DNA of 52,136 bases, filler included, from Sphacelaria rigidula (Eukaryota): the NCBI GenBank assembly GCA_964200075.2. It is 4 parts of 4 records of this genome, joined end to end, with 100 filler letters (N's around TTAATTAATTAA, not from the genome) between each part and the next. Parts side by side here need not be neighbours in the genome. Positions count along the whole stretch, not along the records: positions 26,121 to 39,078 come from CAXNAA020003266.1; 3 more parts are not named here. One strand, 5' to 3'. The position numbers were made by a program, and so were the translations under genes. The notes beneath the pieces are model-generated. The model was given only the letters and a program-made list of their open reading frames with translations, made no database searches and was not told where the DNA came from. Positions 842 through 51,271 of the stretch are shown one piece after another. Within the stretch, counting starts at the first letter, position 1; every line of letters starts with the position of its first letter.

Positions 842-1912
842 TCTCACAATAGCCCTTTTCCAGAGGTCTAGCCCTCGTGATCACAAAGCCATGACACAAA
901 GATAAAATGCACGAAGAAAAAATGTACGCCCAAGGACAGGAGAAACACGGCGGCCCGAAGGGCGGGATTGTTGTACACACACGTCAGCGATAAAAATAAA
1001 GTAGTATGTGTCAATGTGTGTGTTTATCCTCCTCAACCGCCTGTTGGGGGTAGGTGGAAACAAATTTTCCACGAACTCTCCGCGATTCTCGGCCCTAATC
1101 ATACACCACCCCACCACACGCACACACCCCGCCTGCAGCACGTCCATCCCACATCAAATTCGCCACGCCCTTCGGCTGTTCAGCGACAAAAAAAGCAGTT
1201 CGTTTTTGTGTGTTGACCGCTTGCACGTATTTTTGTTACGGTTGTTGGCGCAATCACTGCCACTGTAGTCAGTACTCTTGAGAATTGTGGATCTGCAGCA
1301 GTGCAGCTAGCTGACCCTGGCTTACGCACGAATATCTTGAGACTGTATAGTACTGTTCGGTAACGAGCGGTTCGAGCTCGGTCGTGTGTGTTGACCACAT
1401 GCATATGCGGCTGCAGTTGCTGTTGCGAGATCGCGGCTACTTTTGATGATCATGAGACGGCAGTGCCGATGGCCCTGCTTTGTGCACGAAAAACTGGCTG
1501 CATTTGCTATGATGTCTGTCACATGTGCGTGGCAACGGTCTACCACGCCCTTTCAATGTAGGCGTCGTGTCTAAACCAGAAACAGTTATTCTGAACCCCA
1601 GGCTGAAAAGATTGAACAAAAAGGGACCTGCTGACTCGTGGGCTCTACAGGTGTTCATTTCCCCTTGATGCGGTGCGTTCCTTCAGTCTGGTAACCGTTC
1701 CCGTTTTCTCTCATGTTCACCGGGGTGGCCGAAGCTCTGCCAGTAGACGCCGCTTCACGACACTTCCATTGCAGTACATTTTCGTGTGTCTACATCACCA
1801 TTTAACTCATTCTTCGTGTATGGCTACCCGGATGCGTTTCTGCACGCTTGTCTGTCTGTCTGCCTGCCTGCCGGCGTGCCGCTCCACCACCACTCCTCCC
1901 TCGTGGCTGTAA

Positions 1913-4900: not shown

Positions 4901-5191
4901 AGCATAGCCGTAGCTGTGTTGCTCATACATGTATTTCGAAGTGCTCCATGTGCCCTGCGGCTCCCACGCAGCGGTGCGCGCTCCTTTTCAAGCGGATGGG
5001 TTTGATATGTGTCCCTAAATCGGATCAATATCGACATCTAAATACACCCAACCCTACCTCCTTTCCCGACACGATTACGACCGCTCGTGTACAATAATTT
5101 TCTTCCGAACAGGCGGGTTGGTGACGTCACGGAGGAGGACAAAACAAGTATCCCGGAGCGAAAAGGCGGCATAGGCCAGGCGCAGCGGTGA
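1913..5191 (+). CDS. PAP/fibrillin-like (plastid lipid-associated) protein, spliced, 5' end not identified
   Basis: Phase-compatible exons ~1913-2014, 2657-2722, 3012-3140, 3763-3876, 4450-4538 and 5113-5191 with GT-AG introns give ...VDISK|LCEGDGMKGKWKLEFSTEERYK|LLPVTTDIYNYIYDGNGGGRMDNIIRF...|MDRRGRLVFDFERIESDLFGFKIPLP...EMQ|YFDGDLWIE...NIYR|RVGD...QR*. The GxWxLxF/YST and YxDxDLxI motifs match PAP/fibrillin. Confidence 0.75.
4118..4184. repeat. ~20-bp tandem repeat, 3 copies (gcagcaatttattatagttg)
   Basis: Directly visible, intronic. Confidence 0.9.
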
Positions 5192-5790
5192 CGGGGAATC
5201 GATCTCCTCTTTTTTCAGCAGCAATGGCGTACTGTACACTAGGACATATGGCGCGCGCGCAGCTTGAGATCACGGTACCATGGCCCGCACCCTCGGCCTA
5301 CAATATGTTGACGTTTTCAGTACCGGGGAGAGATGGATTGATCCCTTAAGACCACGAACTCGCCACGAGGAAGGGGAAGGGTTGAAAGTGCAACAAATAA
5401 AGTAATAATGAAATAAATACTAGTTATTATTTTCAGTGCAGAACCACTCTTATTAGGTTGAGTAGTGAGTTGGACGTCGATTTGTGTGTATGTTGCGACT
5501 GTAAATGCAAGGTTAGGATAGCAGAGACCAGGATTGTTGCCCGGAGGATGCAAAGCTCTGTTATCCAACGCACGCTATCGCGTAAAATGCGATTGAAAGT
5601 ATTGGGAACATGTTTTGGCTTCACGAAAATGTACGGTTGACAATCCCGCATTTTTCAACACTATCTAGCTCTAACTCTATCAGGTATGTATCATCCGGCC
5701 AGACTCCACACTGAGATCAGCATTGCTCTCCCAGCAAACAATGCTGAACAGCAAGAGCTTCTTGCTCATCCGGGAATCGTCGCTTTCTTC

Positions 5791-8700: not shown

Positions 8701-11334
8701 TACACTGAGTTTGATCGCGAGTGTTTTACGCGTTTACAACCAAGATATCCTGTCGTGGACTCGAGCTGTGACTGGTCACTTCTTCTAGTCAATCTTTGCC
8801 AGCGCAGCGTCGACAGCACATGACGGGGGATGCGCTGTTTTCACAGATATGTATATTCCTCTCTGGGTCCACGACACGACCAATCGTCCAAATATAGTAT
8901 CTCTTCAGTCGTGACCGTTGCATTGTGGGGCACCTATAATCCCGTCCCATTGTCATTGAAACATTTTTTGTCAAACCTTGTTCAGATTGTACTCGACACC
9001 CGCAAGGACTTCTACACGCTGCGCGCCCAAAGGTGGTCAACGTTGTATAATAAATTCGATGCTATATACAAGTACTCAACATTCCAGCACTGAACCCGTT
9101 TGGTGGTGCTGGGCGAACAAATTAAAAAAAAAAACGCATCTTCTTGATAATTCTGTTAGTCCACATTACCATTTTTCTCCGATATTTTTGCTTCATCAAG
9201 TCGTTTATACCTCGAGCAGAGCGCAGTGACCAACCTCCGCCGGGATAGACTCCAGGTAGTTTCCGTTTGCCCGTATTCTTCGTAACCTGCTGCATTTCCC
9301 AATCTCTGGCGGTAAACCCTCCAGTTTGTTGCAAGATACGTCCAACTCCCTATTCGCAGTATCAGCAGCGCCAAAGAACAGAATATAAACACAGAATAAT
9401 GCAGTAAGATAATGTCTCACGCAATACCACCTGACTCAACGGGCAATGCTGTTTCTTCTCTGCTATGCCACACACCAGCGTACAATTCGTTTCTACTCGA
9501 GCAATCATAATTACATGGACATACGGATGAATGCCTTACCCCTGAATACAGGAGAAACACTGGTTTGGAACTCGTACCGTGGTGCACTGAATATTGCCCG
9601 TGTGTGTCACACGCTTCATTACGCATGTTGAATCCCCGCAGCGAGGGCGCCCGTAGACTCGAAATTCGGACACCGGGAACCCCCCCCTCCCCTGACCATG
9701 AGTACACCCCCTCCCCCCGCGCGCCCGCGGTGGAAAATACCAACTTTTGGGCACACTAAAGTTGAATATCTTAAGAACTGACCACACAATTTCTCAATAG
9801 ATGTATGTGCTTCTTGATTCTCTTTGCATAGCGCCATGCGCCTTCTGCTTCCGCGGTGTGACACGAGCTACCCTGGCTGGGCCAAGGATACCACTACATT
9901 AGAAGTTCAGATAACACCGCCGCGGAGCAGAAATTTCGTTTTCTTTCGAAACAAGAATGAATGGAGCACCAACGACGGTCAGGTGGTCCAGCATAGCGTG
10001 ATCGGGGGTTCGCAAATCGGGAACGCATAATACGGTGTGTACCTTATACAGCTAAATGAATCGCATCGGATCAAGAACCGGATAATCAAGCGCAACCATC
10101 TGTTTATGTCTCGCTCCTGTGGAGCTCGTGGGTCGGGTCTCCTTCTCAATTCTTGTGGTCCCCGTATAGCTGCTTCGCTAGACAGGCGACAGGGTCTTTC
10201 TTGACGAGACTACTTGATAAGCCGCCTCGTCCTCCAACAATGCAGCTTCCGACGATGAAGTGGCACACTCGGACATCCGCAACTCACTCGGACCAACAAC
10301 TTCAGGACGGGGGTTGGTATCCAGTTGGATGCTGGAGAATATATTTGTAATTTAGACCCTTTAAGGTTCGAAACGTTCGCTGGATATCACCCCCTCCCTC
10401 ACCCGCCCCCCTAGTTCGGCGAAAACCCGGCGTGCTCCGTCCCGGCTTTGTAGGGGCGAACCCTCCTATGGGGTTGGCGTCGGTTGGCCATGACGCTGTA
10501 AAACAAGCCAATCACTGCGTAAGCTAGACCACCAGGTTACCGTTTTTTTTCGCGCTCTTGCGTTTTTTTTCCGGTAACCATGATGGTAGTCGAGCTAGAT
10601 CATATTGTGCGGGGTGGGAGAACCTCGACTCCACGCAAAGAAGATTGTCGTACTATGTAGTGTGTAAATGATGAGACACCCACGAGGCAGTGTGGAAACC
10701 GTGGCTGTCTTTACAAGTGGCGATACCAGAAGGTGAAGCAACTTATTGTAGGCTGTCATCCAAATGCAAGATAATCAGAACGGTTCGGGCGGAACAATAG
10801 CAGGATGCAGCTCACCCTTTATGCGACTCGCCGGTCACACAACGGCGCTTCGCGCTTGGTCATTGATTGGGAACCTGGTCCGGCGAAATCCCGGCGTACT
10901 CCGTCCCGGCTTTGAAGGGGTGCGAGGTCGATGATCTTATGACTGTGGCATGCAAGATCGTTAGTATACCCCTCACCCGCCCCACCCCCATAAGCCCTCC
11001 TGCCCCTCCACCCCCCCCATAACTAGCAAACACCAATTTCGCCGCGGTGTGTCGGTTTTATTTTGCGGGCACCGTCGCTCGTAGCAAACTATTCACGTTC
11101 TTGGACTTCAGCAAAAGGGTACACACAACACGCACGTCGTGGTCGTCCCGGTGGTGACGAAAAGTAGATGACAGCAATAACAAAGTGCTCCAGCCAATCA
11201 TCGTCTGCGTGGCGCCGCCCGCATGTGATGGGTTGTGTTTCATATCTCACCTTAGAAGTAAGAGGTCGCCGAGCTCTGGGGGCAGATACTCGATGTTGTT
11301 GAACGACACATTCAGACACACAAGCTCTCGCTTC
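5791..11334 (-). CDS. Leucine-rich repeat protein with C-terminal coiled coil and CaaX motif, spliced, 5' exons missing
   Basis: Minus-strand exons 11334-11251, 9349-9211, 8576-8342, 8018-7927, 6353-6273 and 5829-5791 are all GT-AG and phase-compatible. They encode LxxLxLSxNxL repeats (LNVSFNNIEYLPPELG, LDVSCNKLEGLPPEIG, LILSENKLEEIPETLA), then WELEELRNLNDTLEVKTQKIEETKLRLK|DEIRILQDQRR...|VTTTISKACTVS*. Confidence 0.88.
10410..10969 (-). mobile_element. ~560-bp non-coding dispersed repeat with internal direct repeat and 14-bp flanking duplication
   Basis: Reverse-complement homolog of 38395-38970; flanked by ccctcacccgcccc at 10396-10409 and 10970-10983. Confidence 0.75.
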
Positions 11335-11553
11335 CTGTCGACCATGAGTAGAGGTTGGGAGGTTGCACGGGGGTCTAAGATAGATATGAAAGTGCAGGTA
11401 TGTGTGAGTTTTTTTTTTTTTTACAACAGATGAAAATTAGATGAGAATTGCCTCGAAGTCGAACGCGTCTCATTTTCCGAATTTGTGACAAATTTACGCC
11501 ACAGGTGCACCACCTACGCCTCCTGCAGGTCCAACCCAATCCATGTAACTTGT

Positions 11554-12915
11554 CACGCCGGACAACTCAACTCGGGTCAACACTTGTCAACTCTTTTCCG
11601 CATAAGTCATCAGCGAGTTATAGCTACATAACGCAGTGATGCGCATTCTGGCTAGGTGAGTTATACTGCATAACTCAACGGTGCACAATCTGGCCGGGTG
11701 AGTTCCAGAAGAAAACTCAGCGGTGTATATTCTGGTTGGATGAGTTCTAGAAGATGCTGTAACTCCGCGGTATACATTCTGGCCGGGTGAGTTCTAGAAG
11801 ATAACTCAGCGGTGCATATTCTGGCCAGGCGATTCACAGAAGATAACTCAGCGGTGTGGAAGTCTTGGTCAGGTGAGTTATTCAGCATAACTTAGTGGTG
11901 CATATTCTGGCTGGGTGAGTTATAGGGGATAACTCATCAGTGCATATCTTGTTCAAATGGGTCATTAAAGATAAGTCAGTGGTGCAAATTTTGACCGGGC
12001 AAGTTAACCTTTTGGAAACCATTGACGATTTTTATTGTGTGAATCGGCATCATTTTGACTTGAAAATGACCGAAAATGATGCAGATTCACAAAACAAAAA
12101 TCGGCGATGGGTCCCCAACGGGTTAATAGAAGAATATGCAGTGGTGCATAGTCTAGTCAGGTGAGGTATAGACCGCAATAACTTATCGCTGCAAAATCTG
12201 GCCGGATGAGTTTTGCTATACAAAATAACTGATTGGTTAAAATGAGATAGAGGGGGGGGTCATGTGTTGTGAGTTCTGTACACAGAGATGAGATGTGCGC
12301 CCCTATCATTACGGTCCTGTTTGATCTGCTCGACGTGCATCAGTACAGTACCAGTATACATATATATATATATATGTGTGTGTTTTCATAGTAATATTAC
12401 ACCTTCGGCAGTAGTAGTACTGATTTATAGCTATTATACTTGTAGTGTGAATTACCTCAAGGTTTCTCACGCTAAATGTACCGGCAGACGTGTCACGTGA
12501 TCACGTACGTGTTTCCACTTACACAAGTGACTTCTACCACTAGTATTGACCACTATGTTACACATATTGCCCGTCGGGTGAGTTTTGCTGCATGCCTCAT
12601 TCCCACAACTCAGCTGTGAGTTATAGCAACATTACTCAGCGGTGCATATTCTGGTAAGGTGAATTATAGAATACTACAGTAGAATAGTAACTCAGCGGTG
12701 CACATGCTGGCTAGGTAAGTTATCAAAGATAACTCAGCGGTGCATATTCTGACCGGGTGAGTTATATTGTAGAAGATAACTCAACGGTGCGCACATTCTG
12801 GTCGGATGAGTTATAGAAGATAACTTAGCGGTGCATACTCGTAGAGTCTATTTTCGGCCGGTGAGATATACGGCATGACTGAGATACATATAACTCATGA
12901 GTTGTCCGGCGGTTG
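11554..12915. mobile_element. Non-autonomous TIR element carrying a ~41-bp tandem repeat array
   Basis: Inverted repeats cgccggacaactca (11556-11569) and tgagttgtccggcg (12898-12911). Flanking duplication aacttgt (11547-11553, 12916-12922). Internal units resemble gataactcagcggtgcatattctggccgggtgagttatagaa. Confidence 0.75.
12008..12122. mobile_element. piggyBac-like MITE (TTAA target duplication)
   Basis: TTAA at 12004-12007 and 12123-12126, with imperfect TIRs ccttttggaaaccat / atgggtccccaacggg. Removing it restores a satellite unit. Confidence 0.65.
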
Positions 12916-31391: not shown

Positions 31392-32525
31392 TATGCTGTC
31401 ACGGAAATCAGAGGCTGAAAATTATACCCACGCACCAGAAGCGTGTCTTTTTCAACGCGTACACAGAGCCAAAGGTCACCCACGACTTCTGAGAATCCGC
31501 GGGTTACCGAGGGTCAGGTTCATTTACAAGAAGTCGCATCCTGCAACCCGGACCATATATTTAGTTTTTCTTTACCACCCCTCCCCACCTACTCCAATAT
31601 AATTGGAACATGACAAAGTGTTGCTCTATCGAGCTGTCGAGATAGGTCCGCTTGGATAAGTTCTGCAAACGCAAACAATACCGGTACTGTACGTTACAGC
31701 ACACAGAGAGTGGTTCAGACTCCCGTCACGCGCGAGATATTGATTTGTATAATCAATCATCGACCCTAACAAAAATGTTGGGCGGGGATGGAGATATTCT
31801 TGGGGGCGGGACTCGCCGACCTGCCGAGTCTACACCCCAACCACCATCAGCAGCGGCAGCGGCAGCGGCAGCGGCAGCGGCGGCGGGCGCAGCGGCTGGG
31901 GTGAAACCGGCATTGGCCTCCACCACTGGCGGTTCGATCTTGTCACCGGTTAAAAGGGAGGGTCTAGGATCAATTGCATCTGGTGTTGTGAGTCCGTTGA
32001 AGAGGCAGCGGTCCTTGGCGGGGGTGCCAATGAGACCAGAGACGGAGGTCAGTTTAAAAGTTGAGAAAAGAATACGGTGTTGTACGAGTATATATGGTTT
32101 AAAACTAAGAGTTACTGAGGCATCTTGAATCGTTTGGATCCTCCAAGAATGCGGTAAGGGTAGCTGTTGTTGCACTGTCCTTTGAAGGCGAGCGCCTGCA
32201 TACCAAGCCACGGCACTGGACTGGACTGCATGGCACTGTGACTTGGGTGCTGTCGCTGAAGCGAGTGCTGTGCAACGCCTGTCCGCGTGCTTGTACAGGC
32301 TGGGCCAGCCTAAATACGGACTTGAGCTGTCACAGCCATATCTCATCAACGGAGACGAATTAGGCCATCAACCGCATATCAAATTAATCGTCTCATCAAG
32401 GAGCAGATGCCCATATGCCCTACAGCGTGGGCCCATGCCTTCTCTTAGATTCCCGCCATCCCACACTAAAGTTACGTCGCTTGCAAGTTGCGTTCAAGAA
32501 GAAAAAACGGGTCTGAAACCGTCAG

Positions 32526-32930
32526 ATGTTGTGTCTTGCCGACAAAAAATGCGGTGGAATTAGACAAATGAGGCACAAGTGGCCACGTTCGCCAGACAAG
32601 CTGGTGGTACCGATGGACGTGGACAACGAAAACACGCCGCCCAACTCTTCCGCGGGCGGATACCTATGGCCGAAGACTTCTGCACCCACTGTACATGTAG
32701 AGAGAAAGTCTAAAAAGTATCGTCTCTCGCTGCGGTTCACGCCAGCAAAGGGCGAGAGGCCCCAGCGGAAGAAGTCACCCCGATTCCAAACACGTCAACA
32801 CGCGGAAGCAGCTGCCGCGGAGTGGAGATTAAACTAAACTGGGAGGAAGGGAGGAGGGGTCGGCCCAAGCATGATAGCTTGCCGGAAGCGATCATGAGCT
32901 CAGATCATGAGCAATCAGTCGTTCCCTTAG
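32526..32930 (+). other. Exon encoding AP2-like DNA-binding module 1 + AT-hook
   Basis: KYRLSLRFTPAKGERPQRKKSPRFQTRQHAEAAAAEWRLN/WEEGRRGRPK: three-strand-plus-helix pattern with FxTxxxA..A..EW, followed by RGRP. Confidence 0.65.
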
Positions 32931-33463
32931 GTACGTCATTGGAGGCTGCGGGTATGTTGTTACTGTTGTGGTTGCTGCAACGTTACGAACTATGCACATG
33001 GCGTTAGAAACCACCCTCTCCATCGAAGCAGTTCGGTCGGATCAAATCTTGTGGCCTGAGGTGTTGCTCTGCAGGGAATATCCATCGTTCTTGGCGAGAG
33101 ATTCATTGTCTCATAATCAGTGCGCAACGACTGCAACTTCACTGCCGTTTTCACTCAGACATGAGATTTTGTCCGTCAGCACGTCATGTACAGATATTTG
33201 CACACCGAAAGCGTGCTGCTGCGGCTGCTCCTTCCGGCCGCTGAAATATGACGCAAGACATCACCGTTCCCATGATAGCATATGGGGTAGCCTCAAACAT
33301 CTACCAAAGGTAGTCTGTATATGATGCGGTTCGTTATGCGAGGATCGTTTGTCACGCCGAAGGACGGGTCGTGGGCTGGGCAAAATGACTGCTGCTCTCC
33401 TGCATTTTCAACTGACGGTACTGTACCCCACGACAAAATCCAATTCGCCGTCAAATTCCACAG

Positions 33464-33817
33464 GGGAATCGCTCAACAGCAACAACGTCCCTCGAGTAAA
33501 CACGATGGACACGAACAAGGAAAATAGGCAACCCAGTTCTCATGGGAGTGAAAGGCTATGGACGAAGACTTCTGCACCTCATGTAGTAGAAGATGAGACC
33601 GAAGGAGTGTATCGTTTAGGTCTCACGTTCACGTCATCGAAAGGGAAGAAGCCCGAACGGAAGAGATCGCCGGCGTTCGATACACGTGAGGAGGCCGAGG
33701 CAGCTGCTGAGGAGTGGAGGTTAAGCTGGGAAAAGAGAGGGAGGGGTCGGCCCCGTGATGGTCACTCGCCAGGGGTGGCGACGACCTCACGTTATAACGA
33801 ACCTGAGGTTCCCAGCG
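33464..33817 (+). other. Exon encoding AP2-like DNA-binding module 2 + AT-hook
   Basis: VYRLGLTFTSSKGKKPERKRSPAFDTREEAEAAAEEWRLSWEKRGRGRPR; clear paralog of the previous exon. Confidence 0.7.
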
Positions 33818-34008
33818 GTGAGTCTTTGAACGACAGTCTGTGACTCTGTCATGGATGGTGTCTCCTGTTTATAATCCTCACCATAGACCCGGCTTTACAT
33901 CCTCGTTTCGATGTTTCCAGTGCGCGCGATTGTATGCTGCTGTCACAGGCGGTGTTCACTGTTGTGCGTGTGCTCACGGCTATGTATGCCGTCGGCGCAT
34001 CAGTGTAA

Positions 34009-34848
34009 GACCCACTTTTATGGCAACGAATGTCAATATTTTCGGGACCCCGATTTTGAACAAACCGGGGGGACTCAAATACGTAGACTCAAAATAAGGG
34101 TGACCGTTTTATGGTACAGACAGTACAGTATCACAGATTTGTGAAACGGTTCTGTACACAGACGGTAATTTTCTGCATGCGTGTGGTACTGCGTAGTCGT
34201 GCATGAAGCCGAGGAGAAGGCAGGTGTTAGCCAATCCTTCGAGTACAGTGTCGTACCTTGGTATCCTGGGGTAATTCAGTGGAGGAAACTACATCAGTAC
34301 AGCACATGATGATGCCGTGTGGTAGTGCATGATGGCACAGACGGTAGTGCGAGAACAGAGAACAAAAAGTGCGCGAGCAAAGATCAGTGGTGCGGTGCTG
34401 TACATCACCCGTCAAGTACAGCGACAACAGCTAGGAGAGTGCAGTAGCGTTTGTTATAGTGATCCATGTGGCAGCGCAGCGAGGCATGAGATATTACCAT
34501 GGTTGCAGGGTACGGCGTCAGCACTTATTATCCGGTTGCCGAAGCCCGTGCGAAGTTGCTTCAGCACCTTGGGCGGGCAGTAGACACACCCTGTGCTGTC
34601 ACGAGACTGTCTGCTGTCGCCGTTGCAAATATATCAAATCCCTCGTACTAAGGCATTTTACGTCAATGCACGTACATCACCTAAAAAAAGTCAGGGGGAC
34701 TCACGATCTCGGTACGATTCCCCCCGATTTCTTCGAAAAATCGGGGGAAGGAGTTCCGAGATCGTGAGTCTCCGATTTGGTCCAAGTCCGTGTCCACGAA
34801 TGCGTTCCCCGCCCCCCCTCAGACCCGTGCTTGCCATAAGAGTGGGTC
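34009..34848. mobile_element. PIF/Harbinger-like (Tourist-type) MITE with TAA target duplication
   Basis: TIRs gacccacttttatggcaa / ttgccataagagtgggtc (17 of 18 match), with TAA at 34006-34008 and 34849-34851. No coding capacity recognised. Confidence 0.8.
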
Positions 34849-37800
34849 TAACCCGCCGCGGCAAAATTCCTTCGCTCGCCACATTCCACAGGGAAATCGC
34901 TCAACAGCCTCGCCAAACTCGCTAGCGGGGAGCAAAGACTTGAGCGGCTACGCGTGGAAGAACACAAAATGAACCGCACGGATTCCGCTGCATCGGCGGC
35001 CCTTTCCAGCCGAGAACGAAGATGTCTGGAACGGGGGTGGCGGAGGAGGGATGCAAGGATGAGCGGGAGGTTCAGCTGGCGCGCTTCGTAGCTGGGGCCA
35101 CAAATCGTAGGGCTGAAGACGCAGGATGAAAAGCTGGACTCATTATTCGACCGCCTCGGGGCGAACATGTTCGGAGATGCAGACGCGCTACTCCTGCCCG
35201 ACGAGGACGTGTCCCCAGAAGCTCCAAATGCAGCAGAGGTGGGATCCACTGTGCTTTTGCATGTGTCGGAAATGCAGTCGTATCGTGTGGCCAGACAAGC
35301 GTATACAACGATGGAAATTCTCAAGGCAGAACGTGAGCGCAACGGAAAAGTCTTGGAATACTTGGAGCAAGCGAAAGCTATTTGTGAAGGAGGCGCACCC
35401 GCAACGAAAACTGCCGTGAGGATCGCCGATCGCCGCGTGTACGAGTTCATGTCAGGTGCGTTCGCGCTACGCCATGAATGTTCTCTCTTGAAGATCGCGG
35501 TGAACATGGTGATGCGTTCTAAACTGGGCGGCGCGAAGCCTCGGACAATTTTGAAGTGGGCGCACGACTTTAAGACCCTCAACGGGTATTTCAAGCGCGA
35601 CGGAAGGGGGATGTACGAGAGGGAGTGAATACTGTCCGAGGGGGATCTGAAGCTGAAGCTCTTACGGTGGCTCAAGTCCCAGAAGCGGGTGACCATCAAG
35701 TCGGTCTGTCTATATGTCCATGACGGCTTCTTTGAGGGAGAAGGAGGGATGAAACAGCTGAACAAGTATCATCTGACACTCCCTATCTCGGATTCCACGG
35801 TGCATTCATGGGTGACAAAGCTCGGGTGTACGTACGAGAGGCACAGTCAATCGTATTACGCTGACGGCCACGAGAGGCCTGATGTAGTGGCCAGCCGCAA
35901 CATGTACATCAAACAGAAGCGGGAAATCGCATTGCGCCAACCGCTGTGGGTTCGTGTGGAAAAGTCGTCTCTGAAGACCAAGGAGCTAGAAAAGTTGGAT
36001 GCTCTGAAGGAGACCGGCGACGACTATTTTTACGCGGAGGTCTACAACTGCACCATTAATGGCGAGGCGTGCATCGAGTTTCACGTTGACCTGTTGAATG
36101 ATGGCGGAGTGATCGAAACGTTTGATGCTCTGGGCAATGCTCTCGGGCCAAATGGTGGGCAGTATAGCGTCCGCTTCGAAGCAGCTGCTGGTGCTTCCTG
36201 CAAGGCGCATCATTCCGAGGAGGTGTGCAAGTGCCGTCGCAAGGTGTACTATATGCAGGACGAAAGCATTTATAAAGCGTACGGGCGTGAGGGTAATGAG
36301 TGGGTGATTCAGGTTGTGCGTGGCCTGCGGAAGAAAACGGAGGGGCCGGGAGAGATGATTTCGGCTTTCCAGGATGAGAGGCGCGGCTTCGGTTTGCCTG
36401 TATCAACGGATGAGCTACAGAGGGTGAACCACTTTCGACACGAACGGGGCCGTCCGGCGCTGAAAAGAACCCCGGGCACGCGACATCTTGTTTTCGGGAA
36501 AAACAAAGGTGGCTACTAGGATTTCGATCGATTTGAGCGACAGATAGTGGACGTCATGGATGTTCTAGAGGTCATCGAAGAGAACAAGCAAATAATGTTT
36601 GAGGTGGATCACTCTCCGGGACACGCAAAAATGCGCGAGGATGGGTTGCATACATCCTTTCTGAACGTGAAATACGGGGGCAAGCAGAGGGTGCTACGGG
36701 ATACGAAAATTACGGAGGGGTGTTTGGGTGAGTCGGAGGCGACCATGTATAAATTAGGAGAAAAGTGGAGCACAAAAAATAGCCCAAGAGCCACACCGTA
36801 CCCGAGTAAGCTCGCGGTAGGTGACACGCAACGCATGACATTTCAGTCAGGTGACCCCCCCTCCTTTCTACGACGTGGATGCGCCCACTGTAGACACGAC
36901 ATACACACGAGAGAAAACATCTAAGCAGAAGGACAGCGCTGTCGTTTCCAAGGGCGGGAGCACGGAGGGAGCAACTAGCACAAGTGGGGAAACGGAGGAA
37001 TACATGAAAGAGGGCTATGTCGGTAAACCGAAAGGTATGAGGCAGGTGTTGTGGAAGCGCGGATTGTGGGTAGACAAGATGGGGACGGGAGATAACGCAG
37101 AGCCGAACAAGAGCATCGTAACCGTCCTGGGAAAGTTGCCGGACTTTCGTGAGGAGAGGACGGCACTGCAGCACACCGTCGAGAGTCGTGGGCACATTCT
37201 GGTGCTATCGCCCAAATGCCACCCGGAGGTTGCAGGGGTCGGAATCGAATACTCCTGGGGGGATATCGAAGAAGCACTTTCGGCGGGTGATTAATGACGA
37301 AGTGCCAAAAAACCTACACGCTAATATCGTCAAGTCTCTGTGCCGTGCCACAATTTTGACGCTCGGCCGAGTGCGACGCTTTGCGCGACGCACTCGAGAC
37401 CTCTGCCGGGCGTACCGTGAGGTGGTGCAAATGTAAGGCGCCGGCGACGACGTACCGGAGGGGAAGCGCGGAATAGAGGCGATGCGCAAGAAGTACACGG
37501 CACACCGCAACATCCTGGACATCGAGCCCGGTTTCATCAACACGCAATTACAAGGCGAGGTTGCAGTGGCGCCGGAGACAAGGCGGAAGTGCGCCGTGAG
37601 AGCGGGAGTGGGGGAGGAGGGGGGTATAAGGCCGGTCTCTGATCGATGGCGGGTGGTGCCATACTTACTCGTACGTTCGTAGTAAGAGCATTTGTGTTTT
37701 TTTCAATAAGAAATGCATACGCTGTTGAAGGAAGAGGTATGCTTATTTTGCACCCGTACATGATAGCCAGTGAGGAAGTGGCGATGTGTGCTGTTGTTGG

Positions 37801-38394
37801 ATTCGGAGCCGTTTGCAGTGGGTGCAAAGATAGATCCTCATGCAATGCAATGGTCGTTGGGTACCTTACCTGATTGGAGTGCACATGCCGAACTCAACCC
37901 TTTTTCACACACGTCTCACTTCTGCAAAATGATCCACGTTTTCGCCGCTTGCTCTTCCAAGCTTTCCGGCAGCTGCGGGATGACAACATGTTTACTCAAG
38001 AACCGGTTACAGCCTTTGAGGATTCCGGCTCTGGAAAAATAAATATGATTCAATTTTTCGCCGTCCGCGGGTTCCATAGGGATATGTGGCGTTTTCTCGG
38101 CGGTTGAACATCCGCAATTATTCTGTGTGTACATGGTGCCATCGTCGCAGGGGTTCTTGGCTCGTGGGCTGGTGGGTGACCTGCAAGGTACTGCTCCGAA
38201 CATGAACCAGCCCGGGTTCTAAACGGCCCATTTTCACATCAATTTCAGGAGCTAGTCTTGAGAAATTGTTATCGTAAACACCTACGTAGCGGATCAATCG
38301 CGGACTGTTGGAAAAAGCTATTTGTGTTCCATCCGCCTAGGGAAACAGTCAAAATCTAGCGGAGTGAATATAACGCCACAACATATATTTGTAG

Positions 38395-38970
38395 GGGGGT
38401 GTAGTCATGATAATGCATGCCGTAGTCATACTCGTAAGACCATTGACCTCGCATCCCTGCAAAGCCCAGACGGACCACGCCGGGTTTTCGCCGGACCAGG
38501 CTCGCACTCAATCACCAAGCGCGAAGCGTCGTGGTGTGTTCGGCGAGTCGCATGAATGGTGAGCTGCACCCTCCGAAGATTGTCCGGCCGGAAGCCTACT
38601 GACTATCTCGCATTTGGATTACAGCATACAATGGGCTGCTTGATTTCCTGGTATCGTCACCTCCAGAGACAGCCACGGCTTATACACTACCTCATGGGTG
38701 TCTCACCATTTGAACACTACGTGGTACGATCATCCCCATTGTGCGGATTTCAGGTTCTACCACGCCGCACAATATGATGTTGCTCGACTGCCATCATGGT
38801 TAACGCAAAAAAAAAACGCAAGCGCGCAAAAAAACTCGGTAACGTGGTTGTCTGGCTTACGCAGTGAGTGGTGTGTTTTTTAGCGCCATCACCAACCGAC
38901 CCCGACCCCGTCGGGGGCCCGTCCCTACAAGGCCGGGACACAGCACGCCGGGTTTTCTCCGGACCAGGCT
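38395..38970 (+). mobile_element. Second copy of the ~560-bp dispersed repeat
   Basis: Colinear with the reverse complement of 10410-10969; motif cacgccgggttttc(g/t)ccggaccagg occurs near both ends (~38476 and ~38944). Confidence 0.75.
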
Positions 38971-39078: not shown

Positions 39079-39178
39079 NNNNNNNNNNNNNNNNNNNNNN
39101 NNNNNNNNNNNNNNNNNNNNNNTTAATTAATTAANNNNNNNNNNNNNNNNNNNNNNNNNNNNNNNNNNNNNNNNNNNN
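39079..39178. other. Assembly gap with artificial TTAATTAATTAA linker
   Basis: 100-bp N block with central linker. Confidence 0.98.
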
Positions 39179-39234
39179 TGCAAGAGAGATATGCCACTTC
39201 AGCCCCATATTTTGTATGAATCGCAAAATATAAA

Positions 39235-40040
39235 ATCGGCTGTTATTTCATGTCTATATCCGGTCTGTGATGTGGTAGTCAAAGAAAAAGTGGCGAATTT
39301 CTGTATTCCATGGCTATGTCCGGTCTGCGTTCTGCTAGTGCATAAAACAATGACCACCTTCTGTATTGCATGTCCATGTCCAGGCTGTGTTCTGGTTTAT
39401 GCAAAGATGAAATGGTCAGTTTCCGTATTTCATGTTCATGTCTCGGCTGTGTTCTGCTAATGCAAAGGAAAATGGTTCGCTTCTGTATCCCACGTCCATG
39501 TCCGGGCTGTGTTCTGGTTAATACAAAAAATAAATCATGGTCATTTTCCGTATTTCATATAAATATCCGGGCTGTGTCCTGGTAGTGCAAAAAAGAAAGG
39601 CAAGCTTCTGTATTCCATGCTTAACAATGGTTTTTTGAGGTTGAGAGTAGAGGACACGACTGAGAGTTAGAAGCGATCAACTGATGAACGAATAGTTGCA
39701 GTCCCGAAATGCCCCTCCACGAGGCCCTGAACGCTTTCTGTAGTAGCTTGCCACTGAAGCCCTTGATATCCCTGAGAAGGATATCGACGTGTATCTGTAA
39801 GCACACGCCAGTGTTACAGACGAAGAAAGGCACACATGGAAAAAAAAATGGTCAAGTTAAAGCAAAAGATAAACCCACTCTCAATCAACGCTCTACGCTC
39901 AATCTCATGAAAACATTGTTGTCTATGTCCGGGCTGTGTTCTGATAATAATGCAAATAAAATTGGTTTTTATCTGCATTCTATATCTATATCCGGGCTGT
40001 GTTCTGGTTGTACTGCGAACAAAATGTGATCTTCTGTATG
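39235..40040. repeat. Degenerate ~60-bp satellite (ttctgtattccatgtctatgtccgggctgtgttctggt...), interrupted by a MITE
   Basis: About 6-7 units at 39235-39620 and about 2 units at 39921-40040. Confidence 0.85.
39623..39920. mobile_element. MITE with ~45-bp imperfect TIRs
   Basis: aacaatggttttttgaggttgagagtagag... pairs with ...ctctacgctcaatctcatgaaaacattgtt. A second partial copy lies at ~38982-39078. Confidence 0.7.
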
Positions 40041-41139: not shown

Positions 41140-44100
41140 ATGGCTGAACTGGGGGACGAGGATCCCGCGGTTGACCTAGCTGAGGGTGGATCGCAGGAGG
41201 TTGGTGAGAGAATGGGTTCCATAGAGACACAGTTGTCTCAGCTCACGACTCTAGTTTCGTCGCTAGTTCAGAACCAGAGAGAGCTAGTCTCGTCGCTAGC
41301 TGAGCTACAGGGAGAGAAAGTGGAGTCCTCTGGTTCTGTAGGTGCTGCGCCAGGCAGCAACGGACCAGAGGCTAGTACGCATCCTTCTGACGATGCTACT
41401 GGTGGGACCGCGGGAGGTACGGGCGGCGATGCCCAAGGCTTAGGCGTGTCCAGCATGCGGGTTGGGACTAGTAGTCTTGCAGACTCAGGCTTGAACCCTC
41501 ATGTATCTGCTGTAAACCTTTCCTCTGTCGCTGCAGTAAAATTTGGTTCGATCAGGACTGTAGGTGGAGCTTTGTGTCAATCCTCTGTTCCGCCCGCTCC
41601 TACTCTGCCGAGTAAGTGGTGGGAAAACGTCGCCAGTGAAAACACACTGATTCCTGGGGCTGACATTTCTGGCACAGGAGAGAAGTTGGGTAGGGGTCCT
41701 TTCAAAGTTCCCAAAGTGTTTTTTGACGGTAACGGCGTGTCGTATCCCTCATGGTCGCAGAACTTTCTGTTGAAGGCCCGACACAACAACCTGTATGAGG
41801 CGTTTGTTGCTGAAGCTGAGATTCCGATTGCAGACATTGGTTTCGACTTGATCCTCTGGGTAGAGAAATGATTCAGTGTGGGTGTGATGTGTCAGGCTGA
41901 GATGGCTTGGTGGTTTCTGTTCGACTGCTTGGAAGAAGATTGTCTGAAAACCGTGGCTAGGCATGCTGGTTCCCCTAGCAAGGCGTTCCGAGTGCTCAAG
42001 GATCACTTCCTACCTTTGAGCCAGAGTCAGATTCGCGTGCAGGAGGGGAAACTGAAGTCACTACGCATGCGTTCGAACGAGAATTCCGCGACCTTCTTTG
42101 CATCCATGAGAGAGACGCTTGGTGTTCTACAAATGCTTGAAGTCAAGAAAGATGACAGAGAGGTGTGCAACCTGATGCTTGAGGGACTGTCGCTCGAGTT
42201 CAAGACTTTGCGTGAAACTCTTGTGGTGTTCTGTCCGAATGACCCATCGTTCATAGAGACTAAAGTGCGTGAGCGGTATCTAGACTTGCAGTCACAAGGT
42301 GGTCCGAAGAAGCACAGTGGTGTTGCTCTTGTGTCTAGGGCAGAGAGGAAGAGTACCAAGAAGCCGAACAAGAAGTCGAAGTCTAGCTCCGAATCGATTC
42401 GTCCAAGAAAAAGACGTTTCAGGGAAAGTGTTTCAAGTGTGGGGAGAAGGGTCACTTGAGGTAGGACTGCCTGGCTCGCGTGATCGCTCATCCTACCTAG
42501 ACGGGGAAATTCGAGGACGACGAGGATGAAAATGATGAGAAGTCTAGCTTGGTGTTGCTCTCTGAAACCAGCTTGAATAACTCGAGTGATCTGATGTGTC
42601 TGGTAGCATTTTACGATGCCATACTGTGTGAGTGCTTGTTCAATGATGATGCTGTTCGTGAATAATCTTCTCTTGTAAGGAAGGATATGTGTGTCGAAGG
42701 TTGGTATGCAGACACAGGTACTGCTTTCTACATGACTGATTCTCTCTCTTGTATGAAGCATGTAAAGCCTTGCCACAAAAACGTAAAAGGGATTGGTGGC
42801 GTGACTTGTGAGGTAGCACTCTCTGGAACACTGGAGTTGGTGTTTGTGACTGCTGACAGCGAATTTTCCGTAGAGTTGGAGAACGTGTTGTACCCTCCCA
42901 ACTCAGGGTGTAACCTCTTTTCTCCCAGCGCAGAGTTTGATGGCAAGTCATGGAATGGTCTTGGTGATCCTGATGGTGTCATGACTGCCTACGACGGACA
43001 TATTTCTTTTCAGGACTTCGATGGCATGCTAATTGCGACTGCGTATCGTCTGGGAGATGACTCTGTCGGTTCGGTGTTGGATGCCCTCACTCCTTCAAAC
43101 CCCAAGCATGAGAAGAAGATGGATGTGCACGAGTTCCATAACAACAGTTATGCTCATTTACACGAGGGATTGCTTCGTATTACTGCAAAGCGACTAGGTA
43201 CCGAGTTGACCGGTGACATGCATGCTTGAACGGGATGTTTGATGTCGAAGGCTATTAGGAAAGGAATTACTCTTGAAACTAAATGTAGATCGGATAAAAA
43301 GTTGGGCAGAGTTTTTGTTGACCTGGGAGGGAGGAAGGACGTTGCGTGCGTAGGGGGTAAACATTACCCCATGATTGTGAAGGATGATATCACAAGGCGT
43401 GCATGGATGTGTTTACTAAGAAGTAAGTCAGACGCTGGGAGTGCTTTCCGAAGTTTTTTTGCTAGTGTACGTGCTGATGGATTCCCATCATTGGTTGAGA
43501 TTATTAGATCTGACAATGGAGGGGAGTTTTTTGGGGGGGAGTTTGCATCCGTCTGCAATGAGCTTTTGATCAAACAAGATTTCACTCCGGCTTACAGTCC
43601 CCACTATAACGGTGTTGCAGAGCGTGGATCGGGGTGGATTGAGGAGGCCGCTATGGCGGCTTGTATTCAGGCGAAAGTTCTGTTTGGACATGTGGCAGTT
43701 ACCTAAGACTGACAGACTGTGGGCTGAGGTAATGCACTGGGCTTACGAAGCATTTAATCACACAGCGTACTCTGCTAACCCTGACTCTAAGTCGATGTAT
43801 GAGATGTGGTATGGAGAATCTCGTCCTGCTAGACCGTATCCGTTTTTGAAGCCGGCGTACCGCAGGTGGCAGCGACCGTCTAAGCTGCTACCGCAGGGTG
43901 AGAGTTGCTTTTATGTCGGTCCTTCGAATAGACCACCCGCGTGATTGTCACAGAGTACTTACGAGGGCTGGGACTATTCAGGAAACGAGGGATGTGACGT
44001 GGGAGGCGTTGTCGTCGCAGCTCCCTCCACCGCAACCTCCTCTGCCGATTGAGATCGCGGAAGAGGGAGGGGAGGAAAGTGACGACGATGTAGAAGCTAA

Positions 44101-47388: not shown

Positions 47389-50300
47389 ATGCGGGAAGAA
47401 TTGCGACCTCCCCAATACGGGGATAGGCACCCAGAGAGTGCATCTCGCACTTTCTACACGAGGTATTTGGAATACAAGAAGCGTGTGGAGCACGCTAATG
47501 CAGGGGGTGCCGTGCGGCATCAGGTGGTGACAATGACTCAACAAGAGCCAACTCACGCACAGAGAGTGTTCGCTCGTTTGGAACATAAGGAGAGCACTCT
47601 CACCTCGCCGCAGTTGATTGCGGCGATCAAAAAGCATGCGGGGGTGCGGCAGGCGCCGAGGTAGATCTGACCCAAGCGTCCGCGGCCGTGGCGAAATTTG
47701 TCGCAATGGATTCTCGGGGGAAAACGATCTTGGAGCGTGTGGAGCCCATCTTGGCCAATTTTGAGAAGTACTTCACGGCAAATCCGAACGTAGAAGTAAT
47801 ATACCGTTCCCCCGATGGTGAGTTCATTCCCGACCCGGCAGCAGTAATCACTGAGGCTTTGGTGGAGGGGTTGGCACCGGAATTTTTCAACCAAGCCGTG
47901 CTTGTCAAGCTGCAGCACCAAACAGATTGAAAGGCCGACCCGTGCCTGGTGATGAGCACCGTCGTGGCCGAGGCCAAGGAGTGGCGGGAAATAGAGGTGT
48001 TCGACAAGTCGTCAACCTCTTTGCCGAAATCTTTGCGCAACCATGGCTCGAAATCGGCTGGTCGCACCGCGAGTATTACTTGCCACCGCTGTGGCCAGGT
48101 CGGCCACTACGCGCGCGATTGTCCAACGTCTTCCGGTGGAGAGTCTGGGCAGTCTAGTGCCGCGCGCCATCAACATCGACAGCACAAGGGCAAAAGACGA
48201 GGTAATCGTGGTGGCGGCGGATTCTCCGGCGATGGAGGGTCACAGGCGAGCCCTCAGCAGCAGCCGCAGCAGCAGTAGAATCAGCAGCAGCAGGGTGGCG
48301 GTGTCAGCATGGGCCTGGCTCTGGGTCCGGCGCCGCCGTAGGTGCTGCTGCTGCTACGCAGCGGGCGGTGCAGGTGGGCCCGACTTCTACAGAGTCACAC
48401 ACTGCGGCGGCGACACCGGCAGCAACGCCAGGCACGACGCGTGTCGACGCGCTGGTCGGAGGGTCGCCAAATTCTTGGTTTGCTGGTTGGGGGGCGTATC
48501 CGCCGGCGGTGCCGTTTGAAACTGCCGGGGCGTCTTCGCCTGCGCAGCGTGCGCAGCCGTGGCGTCAAGTGGGATTAGCGGCGCATAGGTCAGCGGAAGA
48601 AGTTCACGTGGAGCTTGCCGACAGATTCATTCCGGCGGAGTTATTTCTTCCGAATCAACGGCAGCGCGGAGCCATTGTGGTTCGGTCTGTGTCGGATTCT
48701 GGCGCCCATTTCACTAGTCAGCCGGTGCAGATGGTTGAGATGCTGGAGCGTCAACTCCCGGGTGTGCTGCTGCGCATCCCATTTTCGCTCGGGGAGCGGC
48801 AGGCAATCACGGCGTCGGCTCAGCATGTTTCAGTCACGGAGCGTACTGTTCCGTTGCAGCTATCCTTCCAGACTGCTTGGGGGCTGGCGCCGTTGCCTCC
48901 GATCTCGTTTGCGATTATGCCAAGGTCGGATGGCGTTGTTCTTCTGGGGCTGCCGACGCTACAGAATCTAGGAGTCGACCCGTAAGGGCGGTTGAAGGAC
49001 TCCATCAAGACGCGGATGTCTCCGCCTGGTCCGCACGTGGAGACGCCCGCCTTCTTGGGCAGTCGTCGCGTGAGCTTGTGGGTGGATGCTTTTCAGGAGG
49101 CTGGGGGGCAGGTGACCGAGGAGCGGGATGCGGCGGTGGAACGCTTAGTAGAGCGCGGCCCGGGGATGTTAATGATTCGGGCGGAAGAGGAGTCCGCTCG
49201 GAAGGTTGCGCTGGAGGAGAGCGTGACAGATGCTGGGGCGACAGGCCTCAGCGTCTCAAAAGCGGAGCGCCTGCACGGCATATTGCATTGCCGCGTCACC
49301 GCGTTTCGTCGTGCGCTGCAGGGTAATCCCCCTGCGCGCGTGGAGCCCATGCGTGTTCAGCTAAAACCTGGGGCGTGCGGCGGCACGGTCCAGTGAAGTC
49401 GAGTTGGTTGGCGTTGTGCATGGCGTCTCTTTTGGCGCTTGGGTTTGGTGTTACAGAATTTGCAGGCGGGGTGGTCCAGTCCGGATATGGCGTTTCCGAA
49501 GAAGCCAGCATCGCGGACAGAGGGCAGGCTGCAGGCGCGGGCGGCAGCGAAGGATCTAGTGGCTCATGCCGTGACGCTGCTCCGTCGTCGTCCTGATTGT
49601 CAGGTGTCAATGTTTCCGGATGCATTTGAGTGCCACTGGGGTAGTTTGGTCATGCAGGTGCCTACAGTTGAAATTCAAATGCCTGTGCGCGCTGTGGCTG
49701 TGTATGGTCCGTGTGAACGTGATGACTCGATGCCGTCCAAATCTGTTGTCCGCCAAGCGCAACGAAAAAACCTCGGGGCCGAAGATGCGGATGTGCAATC
49801 TTTCGAATCGGACGTTGGTACTGCAATCTTGGACAATGAAGGTCTGTTTCGTGTGCATATGGGTGGCCGAAACGTTTTGTGGATTCCGAGTCCTGACAAG
49901 CAGTTGCAGGTACGCCTGATGATTTGCGCGCACATGCACGACGCCGGGCATCGTGGTGTGGCTACGACGCTCGTGCGCTTGCAAGAATATTTTGTTTGGC
50001 AGGAGATAGAAACTCATGTTAGCGAATTTGTCCGCCAGTGTCTTCACTGTGCTGACTCGAGGGCGGGCGATGTTGTTCCCCGCCCGCTCGGCGACACGGT
50101 CCATGGGACCACGCCGAATGAAGGCGTTCATTTTGACTTCTTGTACGTGGGCGAGAGTGGCCCGCTAACTTCCCAAGGTTTGTCGGAGGATGCGGGGTTT
50201 CGATACATTTTGGTAATCATGGATGATGTGAGCCACTCTGTGGCTCTGGAACCAGTAGCAGTGTGTACTGCTGAATCGACCGCTGCATCTTTGCTGAATT

Positions 50301-51271
50301 GGTGCAAAACTTTGGTGTGTGGGTGAGTGATACCGCCACGCATTTCAAGAATGCGATCTTGGCCCGATTGCGGGAGGCTTTGCGCGTTGATCACCAGTTT
50401 GCGGTAGCGTATTCTCCTTGGTCTAACGGTACGTGCGAACGCATGGTCAAGGAAGTAGTTCGTGCTCTTCACTCTATTCTTCTCGAGCAGCGTAGAGCGG
50501 TTTCCGAGTGGGTAGGCGTGTTGCCGGCGGTGCAATGGGCGCTTAATACAGCGTATCGTCGTCGTTACGATAGTACGCCGTACCACATGATGTTTGATCG
50601 TGCCCCTCGGACGTCTTTCTCGGTGCTGGCGTCTTCGTCGGCGGGGGAATGGAATTGTGATGTTTTGGGCGATGTTCAAATTAAGACTGCATTGCAAGGA
50701 GTCTTGGACTTGCAGGAACGTTGCCACGTTCAAGTGCAGGAACGTGTTGCCGCTGAACGTGCGCGTAGACGTGAGATGGGTCCTCCTCGGGGCTGTAACT
50801 GCCGAATTTTGAGGTAGGCGACTATGTCTTGTATAGACGCGTGCATCGTCCGGGTATTACGCCCAAGTTGATGGCGACGTGGACTGGTTCGTGGAGAGTG
50901 GTTGGAGCTCACCACCCGCACGTGTTTGAGATTCATAACATTGATTCGGGTCGTGTTCAGACCGCCCATGTAGCTCGTTTGCGTTTTTATGCAGAACGCA
51001 GCTTAATGTTACGGCTAACGATATAAGGACGTGTTCCAGCATGCCTTCAATCGGGGCAATTTCAAATTGCTGGTATTGTCCGAGTGGCAGAAGCAGATGA
51101 TCGTTCGTTGATCGTGTTGGTCGACTGGATTGGTTTCGAAGTTGAGGAGTGGGAGCCTTTCAAGGATATTGTTTAGGCCGCTCCGGAATTTCTCACGAAG
51201 GAGTTGCGTAAATTGCGCGTGATTCGTGCCGTTGCTGCTCGCATTACGAGTGAGTTTGGTATTAAATTGTG
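47389..51271 (+). pseudogene. gag-pol: Gypsy gag-pol remnant: Gag, protease, truncated RT/RNase H, integrase, chromodomain
   Basis: CHRCGQVGHYARDC knuckle; DSGA protease; integrase HHCC (HDAGHRG...CLHC), VHFDF, WVSDTATHF, YSPWSNGTCERM; chromodomain-like IAGIVRV...VLVDWIGFE..EWEP at ~51060-51200. The start coordinate is approximate. Confidence 0.9.

Follow-up and report, generated by a model that had tools for sequence, protein, structure and literature searches.

A decayed, probably still-transcribed copy of an oversized mariner-type transposase gene in Sphacelaria rigidula, with a duplicated N-terminal module of probable AP2-integrase-like fold

The window analysed here is a stretch of 52,136 nucleotides (filler included) joined from four parts of the Sphacelaria rigidula genome (assembly GCA_964200075.2). 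On its plus strand, between 32.5 and 37.7 kb, it probably carries a pseudogenised, transcribed copy of a large DNA-transposon transposase gene of the IS630/Tc1/mariner (ITm) type. The ancestral product would have begun with two tandem modules of about 80 residues, each with a strand-strand-strand-helix arrangement, an RGRP core and an exon of its own, followed by a long helical, coiled-coil-like stretch, a helix-turn-helix (HTH)-like region and a DDE catalytic core. Taken as a whole, the locus appears to be an oversized mariner-type transposase copy, dead yet still transcribed, whose extra N-terminal module is probably AP2-integrase-like, duplicated in this lineage and provided with AT-hooks.

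Between 31.7 and 37.7 kb, open pieces in three frames of the plus strand, read in order, amount to roughly one long protein, in a setting that is eukaryotic by composition and by context. A reading made earlier from the sequence alone had joined four exons in frame through canonical splice sites, and all six of the strings that it quoted are present where it placed them: GAG/gtcagt at 32047/32048 with cag/ATG at 32525/32526, TTAG/gtacgt at 32930/32931 with cag/GG at 33463/33464, and AGCG/gtgagt at 33817/33818 with cag/GG at 34891/34892. Of the joins themselves, 32930/33464 and 33817/34892 stand, both being crossed by spliced contigs, and that of exon 1 to exon 2 finds no support. The gene model that results is as follows.

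32526..32930, plus strand: exon A, with module 1 and the RGRP core at 32855-32866; covered by run X2 record 2 from 32534, ending at 32928/32930.
32931..33463, plus strand: intron gtacgt...cacag, removed in X2 record 2, where record positions 395/396 join 32928/33462.
33464..33817, plus strand: exon B, with module 2 intact and the RGRP core at 33742-33753; phase 1 at both ends.
33818..34891, plus strand: intron gtgagt...cacag, 1074 nt, removed in RNA-type contigs from two samples.
34892..37682, plus strand: exon C, the transposase body, with its terminal stop at 37680; placed by contigs, motifs and homologs.
36259-61, 36607-09 and 37247-49, plus strand: putative catalytic residues D1, D2 and E; the family motifs QDES, VDHSPGH and GIEYSWG are kept in the window.

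The evidence for splicing comes from contigs of four public runs of the same organism, X6 being a different sample from the same study as X2. Runs X2, X6 and X7 are classed as RNA by guess only ('RNA?'), none being on record as RNA, and they were taken as such because the removal of GT-AG introns is precise. Record 2 of X2 (1532 nt, with no other letters and no gaps) is made up of 32534-32928, 33462-33816 and 34891-35672, and record 17 of X6 (1137 nt) of 33468-33816 and 34891-35678; the junction 33817/34892, across which reads were to be sought according to the sequence-only reading, is thus spanned in both. Since the offsets of 1-2 nt are an aligner ambiguity, AG and G being common to both sides, the two junctions are exact; neither contig has a mismatch, and X2 record 2 joins both module exons to the transposase exon in a single piece. 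RNA-type contigs are also colinear with the genome over 34891-37579, and therefore the last exon contains no further introns. Parts free of contigs, and differences in depth between exons and introns, were not used as evidence. With the type of the runs guessed in this way, the copy is likely to be still transcribed and correctly spliced.

Exon A has three candidate start codons, at 32526, 32568 and 32613. The Met at 32613 is the likely ancestral start, because the module lies at the very N-terminus of the homologs and because this Met is conserved in both window modules (MDVDNEN and MDTNKEN). Arithmetic from the coordinates, with exon 1 left out, reduces the ancestral product from the ~1250 residues proposed before to ~1150-1180. 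Between the two modules, identity is ~71% at the DNA level (over 83 nt) and 54% at the protein level. In addition, the last ~35 nt of the second intron and the first 17 nt of exon C repeat the preceding intron/exon boundary (33428-33480 vs 34856-34908, 77%), which indicates that the second module arose by tandem duplication of an exon together with its intron.

The reading frame of this copy is broken, as the earlier suggestion to repair its lesions had implied. A 5-bp duplication of TAAAC at 32830-32839 introduces a stop and a frameshift into module 1, and exon C contains four in-frame stops (35089, 35626, 36517 and 37434) and two +1 frameshifts, in a C7 run at 36855-61 and in a G6 run at 37257-62. 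The RNA-type contigs share these lesions with no differences, and errors confined to the assembly of the window therefore cannot account for them. As a pseudogene, the copy cannot make the ancestral protein and, dead as it is, has no functional consequence beyond being transcribed. Less damaged copies are present in the same organism. Run X4 holds further copies at ~94-95% identity, and in one of its contigs (depth 79 of 233) one base of the C7 run at 36855 is missing, so that at least one other copy is without that frameshift.

Homologs of the transposase body were collected by a full HMMER scan (phmmer) of 1.84 billion representatives, for which the read-through of 35092-36924, with X at two stops, served as the query. 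The scan gave 1457 clusters at E<=1e-3, 506 at E<=1e-10 and 103 at E<=1e-30; many of the 1457 clusters, formed at 50% identity, are fragments, and many homologs have 1000-1450 residues. The best match is a Sphacelaria rigidula protein with 75% identity, and a Pelagophyceae protein of 1170 residues was also found. The stored set comprises 171 homologs, 54 of which have at least 550 residues, and 52 long homologs were scanned against Pfam. The family seems to be common in marine protists and not yet catalogued.

The nature of the core was assessed on an intact homolog, P0058 (1047 residues), which was modelled by AlphaFold from an alignment of 105 rows and which stands in for the window copy. 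The model has a mean predicted local distance difference test (pLDDT) score of 74.8, with values above 90 over most of residues 400-970. In a Foldseek search with it, ranks 1-6 and 8 were the Mos1 mariner transposase (best E 1.6e-3). VIA-align superposed the core on Metnase (3k9j_A) with Z 15.2, a root-mean-square deviation (rmsd) of 2.4 and 187 of 201 residues aligned, and on SETMAR, the Mos1 catalytic domain and Sleeping Beauty with Z of 15.0, 14.9 and 13.3, as compared with at most 9.6 for retroviral integrases and 7.8 for Tn5. The Tc1/mariner-type DDE core that had been guessed from motifs in the sequence is thus recovered, with Z 13.3-15.2 to these four, and the modelled fold argues that the core of the family is structurally of the ITm type, a placement that we hold to be likely.

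The same model places the presumed active site. The first D lies on the strand 602-613, the second D after the strand 718-723 and the E at the start of a helix, positions that suggest a catalytic role for all three. Fourteen of the 171 stored homologs match all three motif patterns, and D, D and E are kept in distant members. The window copy has spacers of 116 residues between the two D and ~213 from D to E; the corresponding ranges in the 14 homologs are 92-170 and 158-329, and the P0058 model predicts an ordered structure for the long D-to-E spacer. Ahead of the core, exon C encodes a helical, coiled-coil-like and HTH-like N-terminal part. P0058 has here two helices of ~50 residues (203-260 and 280-325), which match coiled coils such as p85 iSH2 (Z ~8) and may act as a pairing device, followed by short helices (397-457) in the HTH-like region; full-length Mos1 aligns from residue 281, but with an rmsd of ~15. 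Pfam HTH_23/HTH_28 models match two of the 52 long homologs (P0060 strongly, P0146 weakly), and weak HTH_33, HTH_21 and HTH_Tnp_4 matches occur in four more.

We then consider the N-terminal module. A hidden Markov model (HMM) was built from the two window modules alone and iterated over the 171 stored homologs at E<0.05. It settled on 12 proteins, 10 of them distinct, with exactly one match each, always within residues 1-117 except in P0013 (163-237); the best E of a reversed-sequence control was 4.7. At E<0.01 the iteration stops at P0079 and P0009, the remote members resting on E<0.05, and P0014, not recovered automatically, was added to the module set by eye. By automatic search the module is found in eight of the 52 long homologs; many others start inside the transposase, or may have lost their N-terminal exons in gene prediction. 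Searching near-length proteins with module 2 gave no matches, and a profile search for longer proteins returned only the seven proteins already in the profile. In P0131 (1359 residues), module and transposase share one uninterrupted open reading frame (ORF), 1297-5376 of the 6856-bp metagenome contig L001, a single locus obtained from a metagenome scan with one protein as query. The fusion of module and transposase is therefore independent of any splicing model.

That such modules co-occur with homologous transposases, as had been proposed, is thereby confirmed for one N-terminal module in 10 distinct homologs, P0131 among them. Tandem modules and AT-hooks, by contrast, cannot be kept as features of the family, since all 12 module-bearing homologs have a single module. 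The AT-hook cores of the window read EEGRRGRPKHD (32855-66) and EKRGRGRPRDG (33742-53), with RGRP flanked by basic residues; among the 54 stored homologs of at least 550 residues, [RK]GRP turns up once, in P0091 (residue 424), where it lies far outside any N-terminal module. Hooks and duplication are therefore seen only in the window. The earlier picture of two AP2-like modules, each with RGRP, holds as to the two modules, their RGRP cores and their fusion to the transposase; AP2 membership stays below the cut-offs. A quick-search tree of 60 cores, built on 278 columns, leaves 26 of its 57 inner branches open, and the module bearers are scattered over it. Their distribution requires 3 changes, a result matched by 56 of 500 shuffles; it would be compatible with an old feature and is no proof of one.

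Module 2 (window:33532-33777) was modelled by AlphaFold from an alignment of 13 rows, put together in part by eye. The model has strands at 17-21, 26-34 and 42-45 and a helix at 52-69, with a mean pLDDT of 74.1 and core blocks of 74-93, and its predicted beta-beta-beta-alpha order is that of AP2 and integrase arm-binding domains. Window module 2 reaches 14.2 bits with Pfam AP2 (PF00847), at E 0.057, where the cut-off is 33.3. When 13 modules were examined, AP2 was hit in two (E 0.055-0.057) and Arm-DNA-bind_4 in two (best E 0.0084), all below the cut-offs. The Atlas language-model neighbours, which serve as leads only, include clusters of Arm DNA-binding and Tn916 integrase DNA-binding domains (0.94), and a distant module gave, again as a lead only, a cluster in which 10% of the members carry AP2 (0.83). 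In structure comparison the module matches AtERF1 (Z 4.5, 51 of 63 residues aligned, 18% identity), WRINKLED1 (4.8), TEM1 (4.3), PfSIP2 (4.2) and the arm domain of a P4-like integrase (4.3). The expected fold is thus predicted as to the order of strands and helix, with Z to AP2 entries of 4.2-4.8 that tie with unrelated folds. We favour, with some reserve, the description of an AP2-integrase-like fold and a probable DNA binder, and do not file the module as a member of Pfam AP2.

Several results weigh against the account given so far. As to splicing, the classing of X2, X6 and X7 as RNA is a guess, and the spliced contigs might formally derive from a processed DNA copy identical to the locus. 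As to the core, no Pfam transposase catalytic model matches any of the 52 long homologs at E<=0.3, nor any of 25 at E<=0.01, and none of nine window ORF fragments has a relevant Pfam match; DDE_3, Transposase_1 and DDE_1, the Pfam catalytic models for Tc1/mariner/pogo/IS630, are unmatched in all three sets. The D-to-E spacer lies outside every described ITm class. As to mobility, searches round the window copy, which is old, brought up neither terminal inverted repeats (TIRs) nor a target-site duplication. Comparison of 32050-32620 with 37560-38600 in inverted orientation gave a best score of 10, as compared with a mean of 9.5 (range 8-13) in 50 shuffles, and further TIR searches of this copy (seed 10; score >=13) gave none. 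None were found around the intact ORF on L001 either, where the flanks measure only 1.3-1.5 kb. As to the module, no measure brings the AP2 link to significance. The top structural Z is only 5.2, for T7 Gp1.2, and PH, PX, double-stranded RNA-binding domains (dsRBDs) and other small folds score level with the AP2 entries; searched against all PDB sequences, the module profile retrieves no AP2 at E<=10, its only match being GW182 (E 1.7); and in the full-length P0058 model the module is unfolded, with a pLDDT of ~30.

It is possible, though doubtful, that the modules belong to some unrelated small alpha/beta fold (for example a nucleic-acid binder resembling dsRBD or WGR domains, or a domain for protein interaction) that shares with AP2 only the arrangement of its elements. 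Besides T7 Gp1.2, the PH domain (Z 5.1) and dsRBDs (4.7) stand level with AP2, Foldseek ranks the TARBP2 dsRBD first (E 0.079), and hhalign of the module profile against the N-terminal 80 residues of lambda integrase gives a probability of 0.18%, all of which, like the missing AP2 in the HMM search of PDB, would fit such a domain. On the other side, the strand-strand-strand-helix order of the module is that of AP2 and not of the dsRBD, which begins with a helix. The AP2 entries align over nearly the whole domain (51/63) and have the highest identities listed (16-18%), and three independent weak pointers, namely Pfam AP2, Pfam Arm-DNA-bind_4 and the Atlas Arm/Tn916 clusters, lead to one class. 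The K/R-rich loop and the AT-hook that follows it would also fit DNA binding. We therefore retain the AP2-integrase-like fold as the favoured description of the module.

The long homologs also carry a range of accessory domains, which together with the few HTH models make up their Pfam matches: chromodomains in 6 of the 52, SAP in 4 and bromodomains in 2. Chromodomains and/or SAP domains are found in P0023, P0028, P0034, P0042, P0043, P0091 and P0112. The chromodomain, with or without SAP, is inserted just upstream of the first catalytic D, and P0112 has a SAP domain within the D-to-E spacer; on the core tree, P0023, P0028, P0034 and P0043 group together as one clade (SH-aLRT 91). P0131 and P0090, whose E motif was not located, have their bromodomain after the second D, in the region of the long D-to-E spacer. 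According to the accessible part of a preprint on chromatin evolution, very few transposon-bromodomain fusions are reported and none has been validated by RNA-seq (10.1101/2021.11.30.470311), and these two homologs may be worth a look of their own. Judged by its sequences, the family looks like a scaffold that has repeatedly gained DNA- or chromatin-targeting parts.

Because no ends were found, mobility can be inferred only from homology and fold, the conserved triad, the several decaying copies in one genome and the wide, patchy spread, and on these grounds we take the family to be mobile. In a working element, the DDE core would perform cut-and-paste transposition, while the HTH region and the N-terminal modules would bind the ends of the element or subterminal sites. 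By analogy with AP2 and integrase arm-binding domains, the modules would place their sheet in the major groove and the AT-hooks would occupy the adjacent AT-rich minor groove, the coiled coil pairing two protomers.

An unlikely alternative holds that the proteins belong to a host gene family domesticated from a mariner-type transposase, in the manner of SETMAR, in which the N-terminal module and, in relatives, the chromo, bromo or SAP domains would act on chromatin and the window copy is a dead paralogue. Such a family would explain the missing terminal repeats at both loci examined, the chromatin readers of the relatives (Chromo 6/52, SAP 4/52, Bromodomain 2/52), the transcription and splicing of the locus, and the larger number of near-copies that cover exons as compared with introns. 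It is harder to reconcile with several diverged copies (90-95% identity) in one organism that have stops and frameshifts, with 1457 clusters at 50% identity, many of them fragments, with a D, D, E triad kept across distant members, and with the mobile elements in which the surroundings of the locus are rich. The chromatin readers themselves have a precedent, since transposons are known, from the parts of two sources available to us, to acquire chromodomains and similar domains (PMC12477816; bioRxiv 10.1101/2021.11.30.470311). We thus keep to a transposase of a mobile family, one copy of which has decayed in the window.

The remaining feature of the four-exon model lies upstream of exon A.

31775..32047, plus strand: Ala-rich leader, formerly 'exon 1'; not part of the element, its donor being used and joined to sequence absent from the window.

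The donor of this exon is real and is used by another transcript. Both X2 record 1 and X6 record 15 span 31897-32048 before continuing with letters from outside the window; a search of the window that allowed up to 3 mismatches found none of the letters past the 32047 donor, and in two samples the GT donor at 32047/32048 is spliced to at least 900 nt of such outside sequence. The Ala-rich exon thus belongs to a different transcript. It probably opens a host gene, the following exon of which would be found either outside the window or in the N stretch 39079-39178; the transposase copy may sit within an intron of that gene. That 31775-32047 is nevertheless the true first exon, spliced to 32526, is very improbable: the donor GAG/gt, which is really used, and the acceptor cag/ATG do join in frame, but the donor leads to non-window sequence in both samples, X2 record 2 begins at 32534 with nothing upstream, X7 record 22 (32164-32605) passes the proposed acceptor at 32525/32526 unspliced, contig depths are unlike (47-64 for the Ala-rich exon vs 8.5-18 for the transposase contigs), 11 of 12 module-bearing homologs have their module in the first 117 residues without such a leader, and a protein search with the Ala-rich exon found no matches.

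The intron that precedes exon C contains a second mobile element, and further repeats lie nearby.

34009..34848, strand not assigned: nested non-autonomous element, 840 bp, with TIRs of ~18 nt (GACCCACTTTTATGGCAA and TTGCCATAAGAGTGGGTC), inside the 33818..34891 intron.

This nested element fills most of the 1074-nt intron, is flanked by TAA at 34006-08 and 34849-51, and has in its sequence the pattern of a Harbinger/PIF-type miniature inverted-repeat transposable element (MITE). Its summed X4 depth reaches 331,464 (34112-34312), as compared with ~55-107 for single-copy contigs; with a depth of ~330,000 it is therefore among the organism's most abundant repeats. A further high-copy repeat lies at 32102-32503, just upstream of exon A, with a summed X4 depth of 2,100-12,200. 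Contigs break at 32327-32366, so that this repeat may consist of one or two small inserted elements. Downstream, the 100-N stretch 39079-39178, which is the filler between joined parts, is followed at 39220-40000 by direct repeats of ~60-62 bp, with 4-6 copies per reported family at 60-86% identity. The plus strand then carries degraded long terminal repeat (LTR) retrotransposon pieces at 41872-43703, with a Copia-type gag (weak, E 0.001), a Pol beta-barrel and an integrase core, and a degraded Gypsy-type integrase zinc-binding domain at 49397-50323.

If the reading proposed here is true, the family combines a mariner-type core whose D-to-E spacer is enlarged three- to nine-fold with DNA targeting by a non-HTH N-terminal module and, in relatives, by inserted chromatin readers. 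It would then bear on how cut-and-paste elements choose their sites, and on the long-standing idea that the AP2-type domains of eukaryotic transcription factors came from mobile elements. We put forward only tentatively that these proteins form an unnamed, superfamily-rank ITm branch in stramenopiles and marine protists, with AT-hooks and duplication here and chromo, SAP or bromo domains elsewhere, and that this branch would be the first DDE cut-and-paste family shown to employ an AP2-type domain, as well as a mobile store of these domains in eukaryotes. The distance of the module from Pfam AP2 speaks against the family as the direct source of stramenopile AP2 domains. As the family is not seen by Pfam and its N-terminal exons are split by introns, its copies are likely annotated as 'hypothetical proteins' or as split genes, and a family profile would help to put right the annotation of brown algal and pelagophyte genomes and of marine metagenomes.

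Among the known superfamilies, Sola and Zator were set aside, the core being mariner-like with an E and no Pfam model matching; Sola are DDD transposases, and Zator are relatives of Pfam PF07592. KDZ and EnSpm were set aside likewise, since no Pfam model matches the family. The closest likeness is to Tc1/mariner, as represented by Mos1, SETMAR-Metnase and Sleeping Beauty. The core superposes on these over 187-198 of ~200-224 residues with an rmsd of 2.4-3.5, a helical, HTH-like and presumably DNA-binding part lies upstream of it, and the family motifs D-x-S-x-G-H round the second D and HPE...GIEYxWG round the E resemble DNaxxH and NPIExxW, the Tc1/mariner motifs at these places. The family differs in length (~1000-1450 residues against ~340-360, two to three times longer), in its D-to-E spacer (158-329 residues against 34-41), in the added N-terminal module and long coiled coil, in having no match to the Pfam Tc1/mariner models (0/52), and in that terminal repeats and a TA duplication were not found at the window copy or at L001.

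Within ITm, where the D-to-E spacer has 34-41 residues, the Sailor group (DD82E) reaches 78-111, and its transposases, of 323-676 residues, have the HTH as the only DNA-binding domain described in the accessible part of the source (PMC8533490). Sailor resembles the present family in that insertions into an ITm core stretch the D-to-E spacer and, by the same partial source, in its occurrence in stramenopiles; our proteins differ in spacers of 158-329 residues, lengths of more than 1000 residues and extra domains. From the available part of the 2025 description of the Ectocarpus mobilome, 17 Mariner-Tc1 families and 51 unclassified 'DNA/Unknown' families are reported, and transposase genes often contain introns (PMC12477816). 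One of these families, TcMar-2_Ec32, is a Mariner-Tc1 element of 4.4 kb with an extra N-terminal putative DNA-binding domain, the cysteine-rich EsV-1-7 (PMC12477816). As a brown-algal and unusually long Mariner-Tc1 element that has gained such a domain it comes near to the present family, and as far as that source goes its domain is EsV-1-7 and not the strand-strand-strand-helix module; the word 'AP2' is absent from its main text. The present family may already sit in the Ectocarpus library, Repbase or Dfam under another label.

The suggestion of an undescribed family is accordingly upheld in part. No Pfam model covers it, and in the literature examined on AP2 with transposases, mariner, brown algae, diatoms and stramenopiles the architecture was not found described, nor was a mariner-type DDE transposase found there as a partner of AP2. 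The general idea of AP2-type domains in transposases, on the other hand, is already in print and is not new (PMC1702500, as far as accessible): the partners listed in the parts available are lambdoid phage integrases and unspecified 'transposases of different elements' (PMC1702500; PMC3537659). With the AP2/ERF and integrase arm-binding domains the module shares a predicted three-stranded sheet on a C-terminal helix, of ~55-60 residues, and its pattern of a hydrophobic strand ... G-[YF]-x-[ST]-x-x-E-A ... [FW]-R resembles the AP2 end F-x-T-x-EEAA-x-AYD. As in lambda and Tn916 integrases, it stands at the N-terminus of a recombination enzyme, and it differs from the AP2-integrase superfamily in falling below every threshold (14.2 bits vs 33.3; Z 4.2-4.8). 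Finally, the RGRP core beside a DNA-binding domain recalls the GRPR/AT-hook of Tc1-type transposases, with the difference that here a hook follows each N-terminal module and not the HTH pair.

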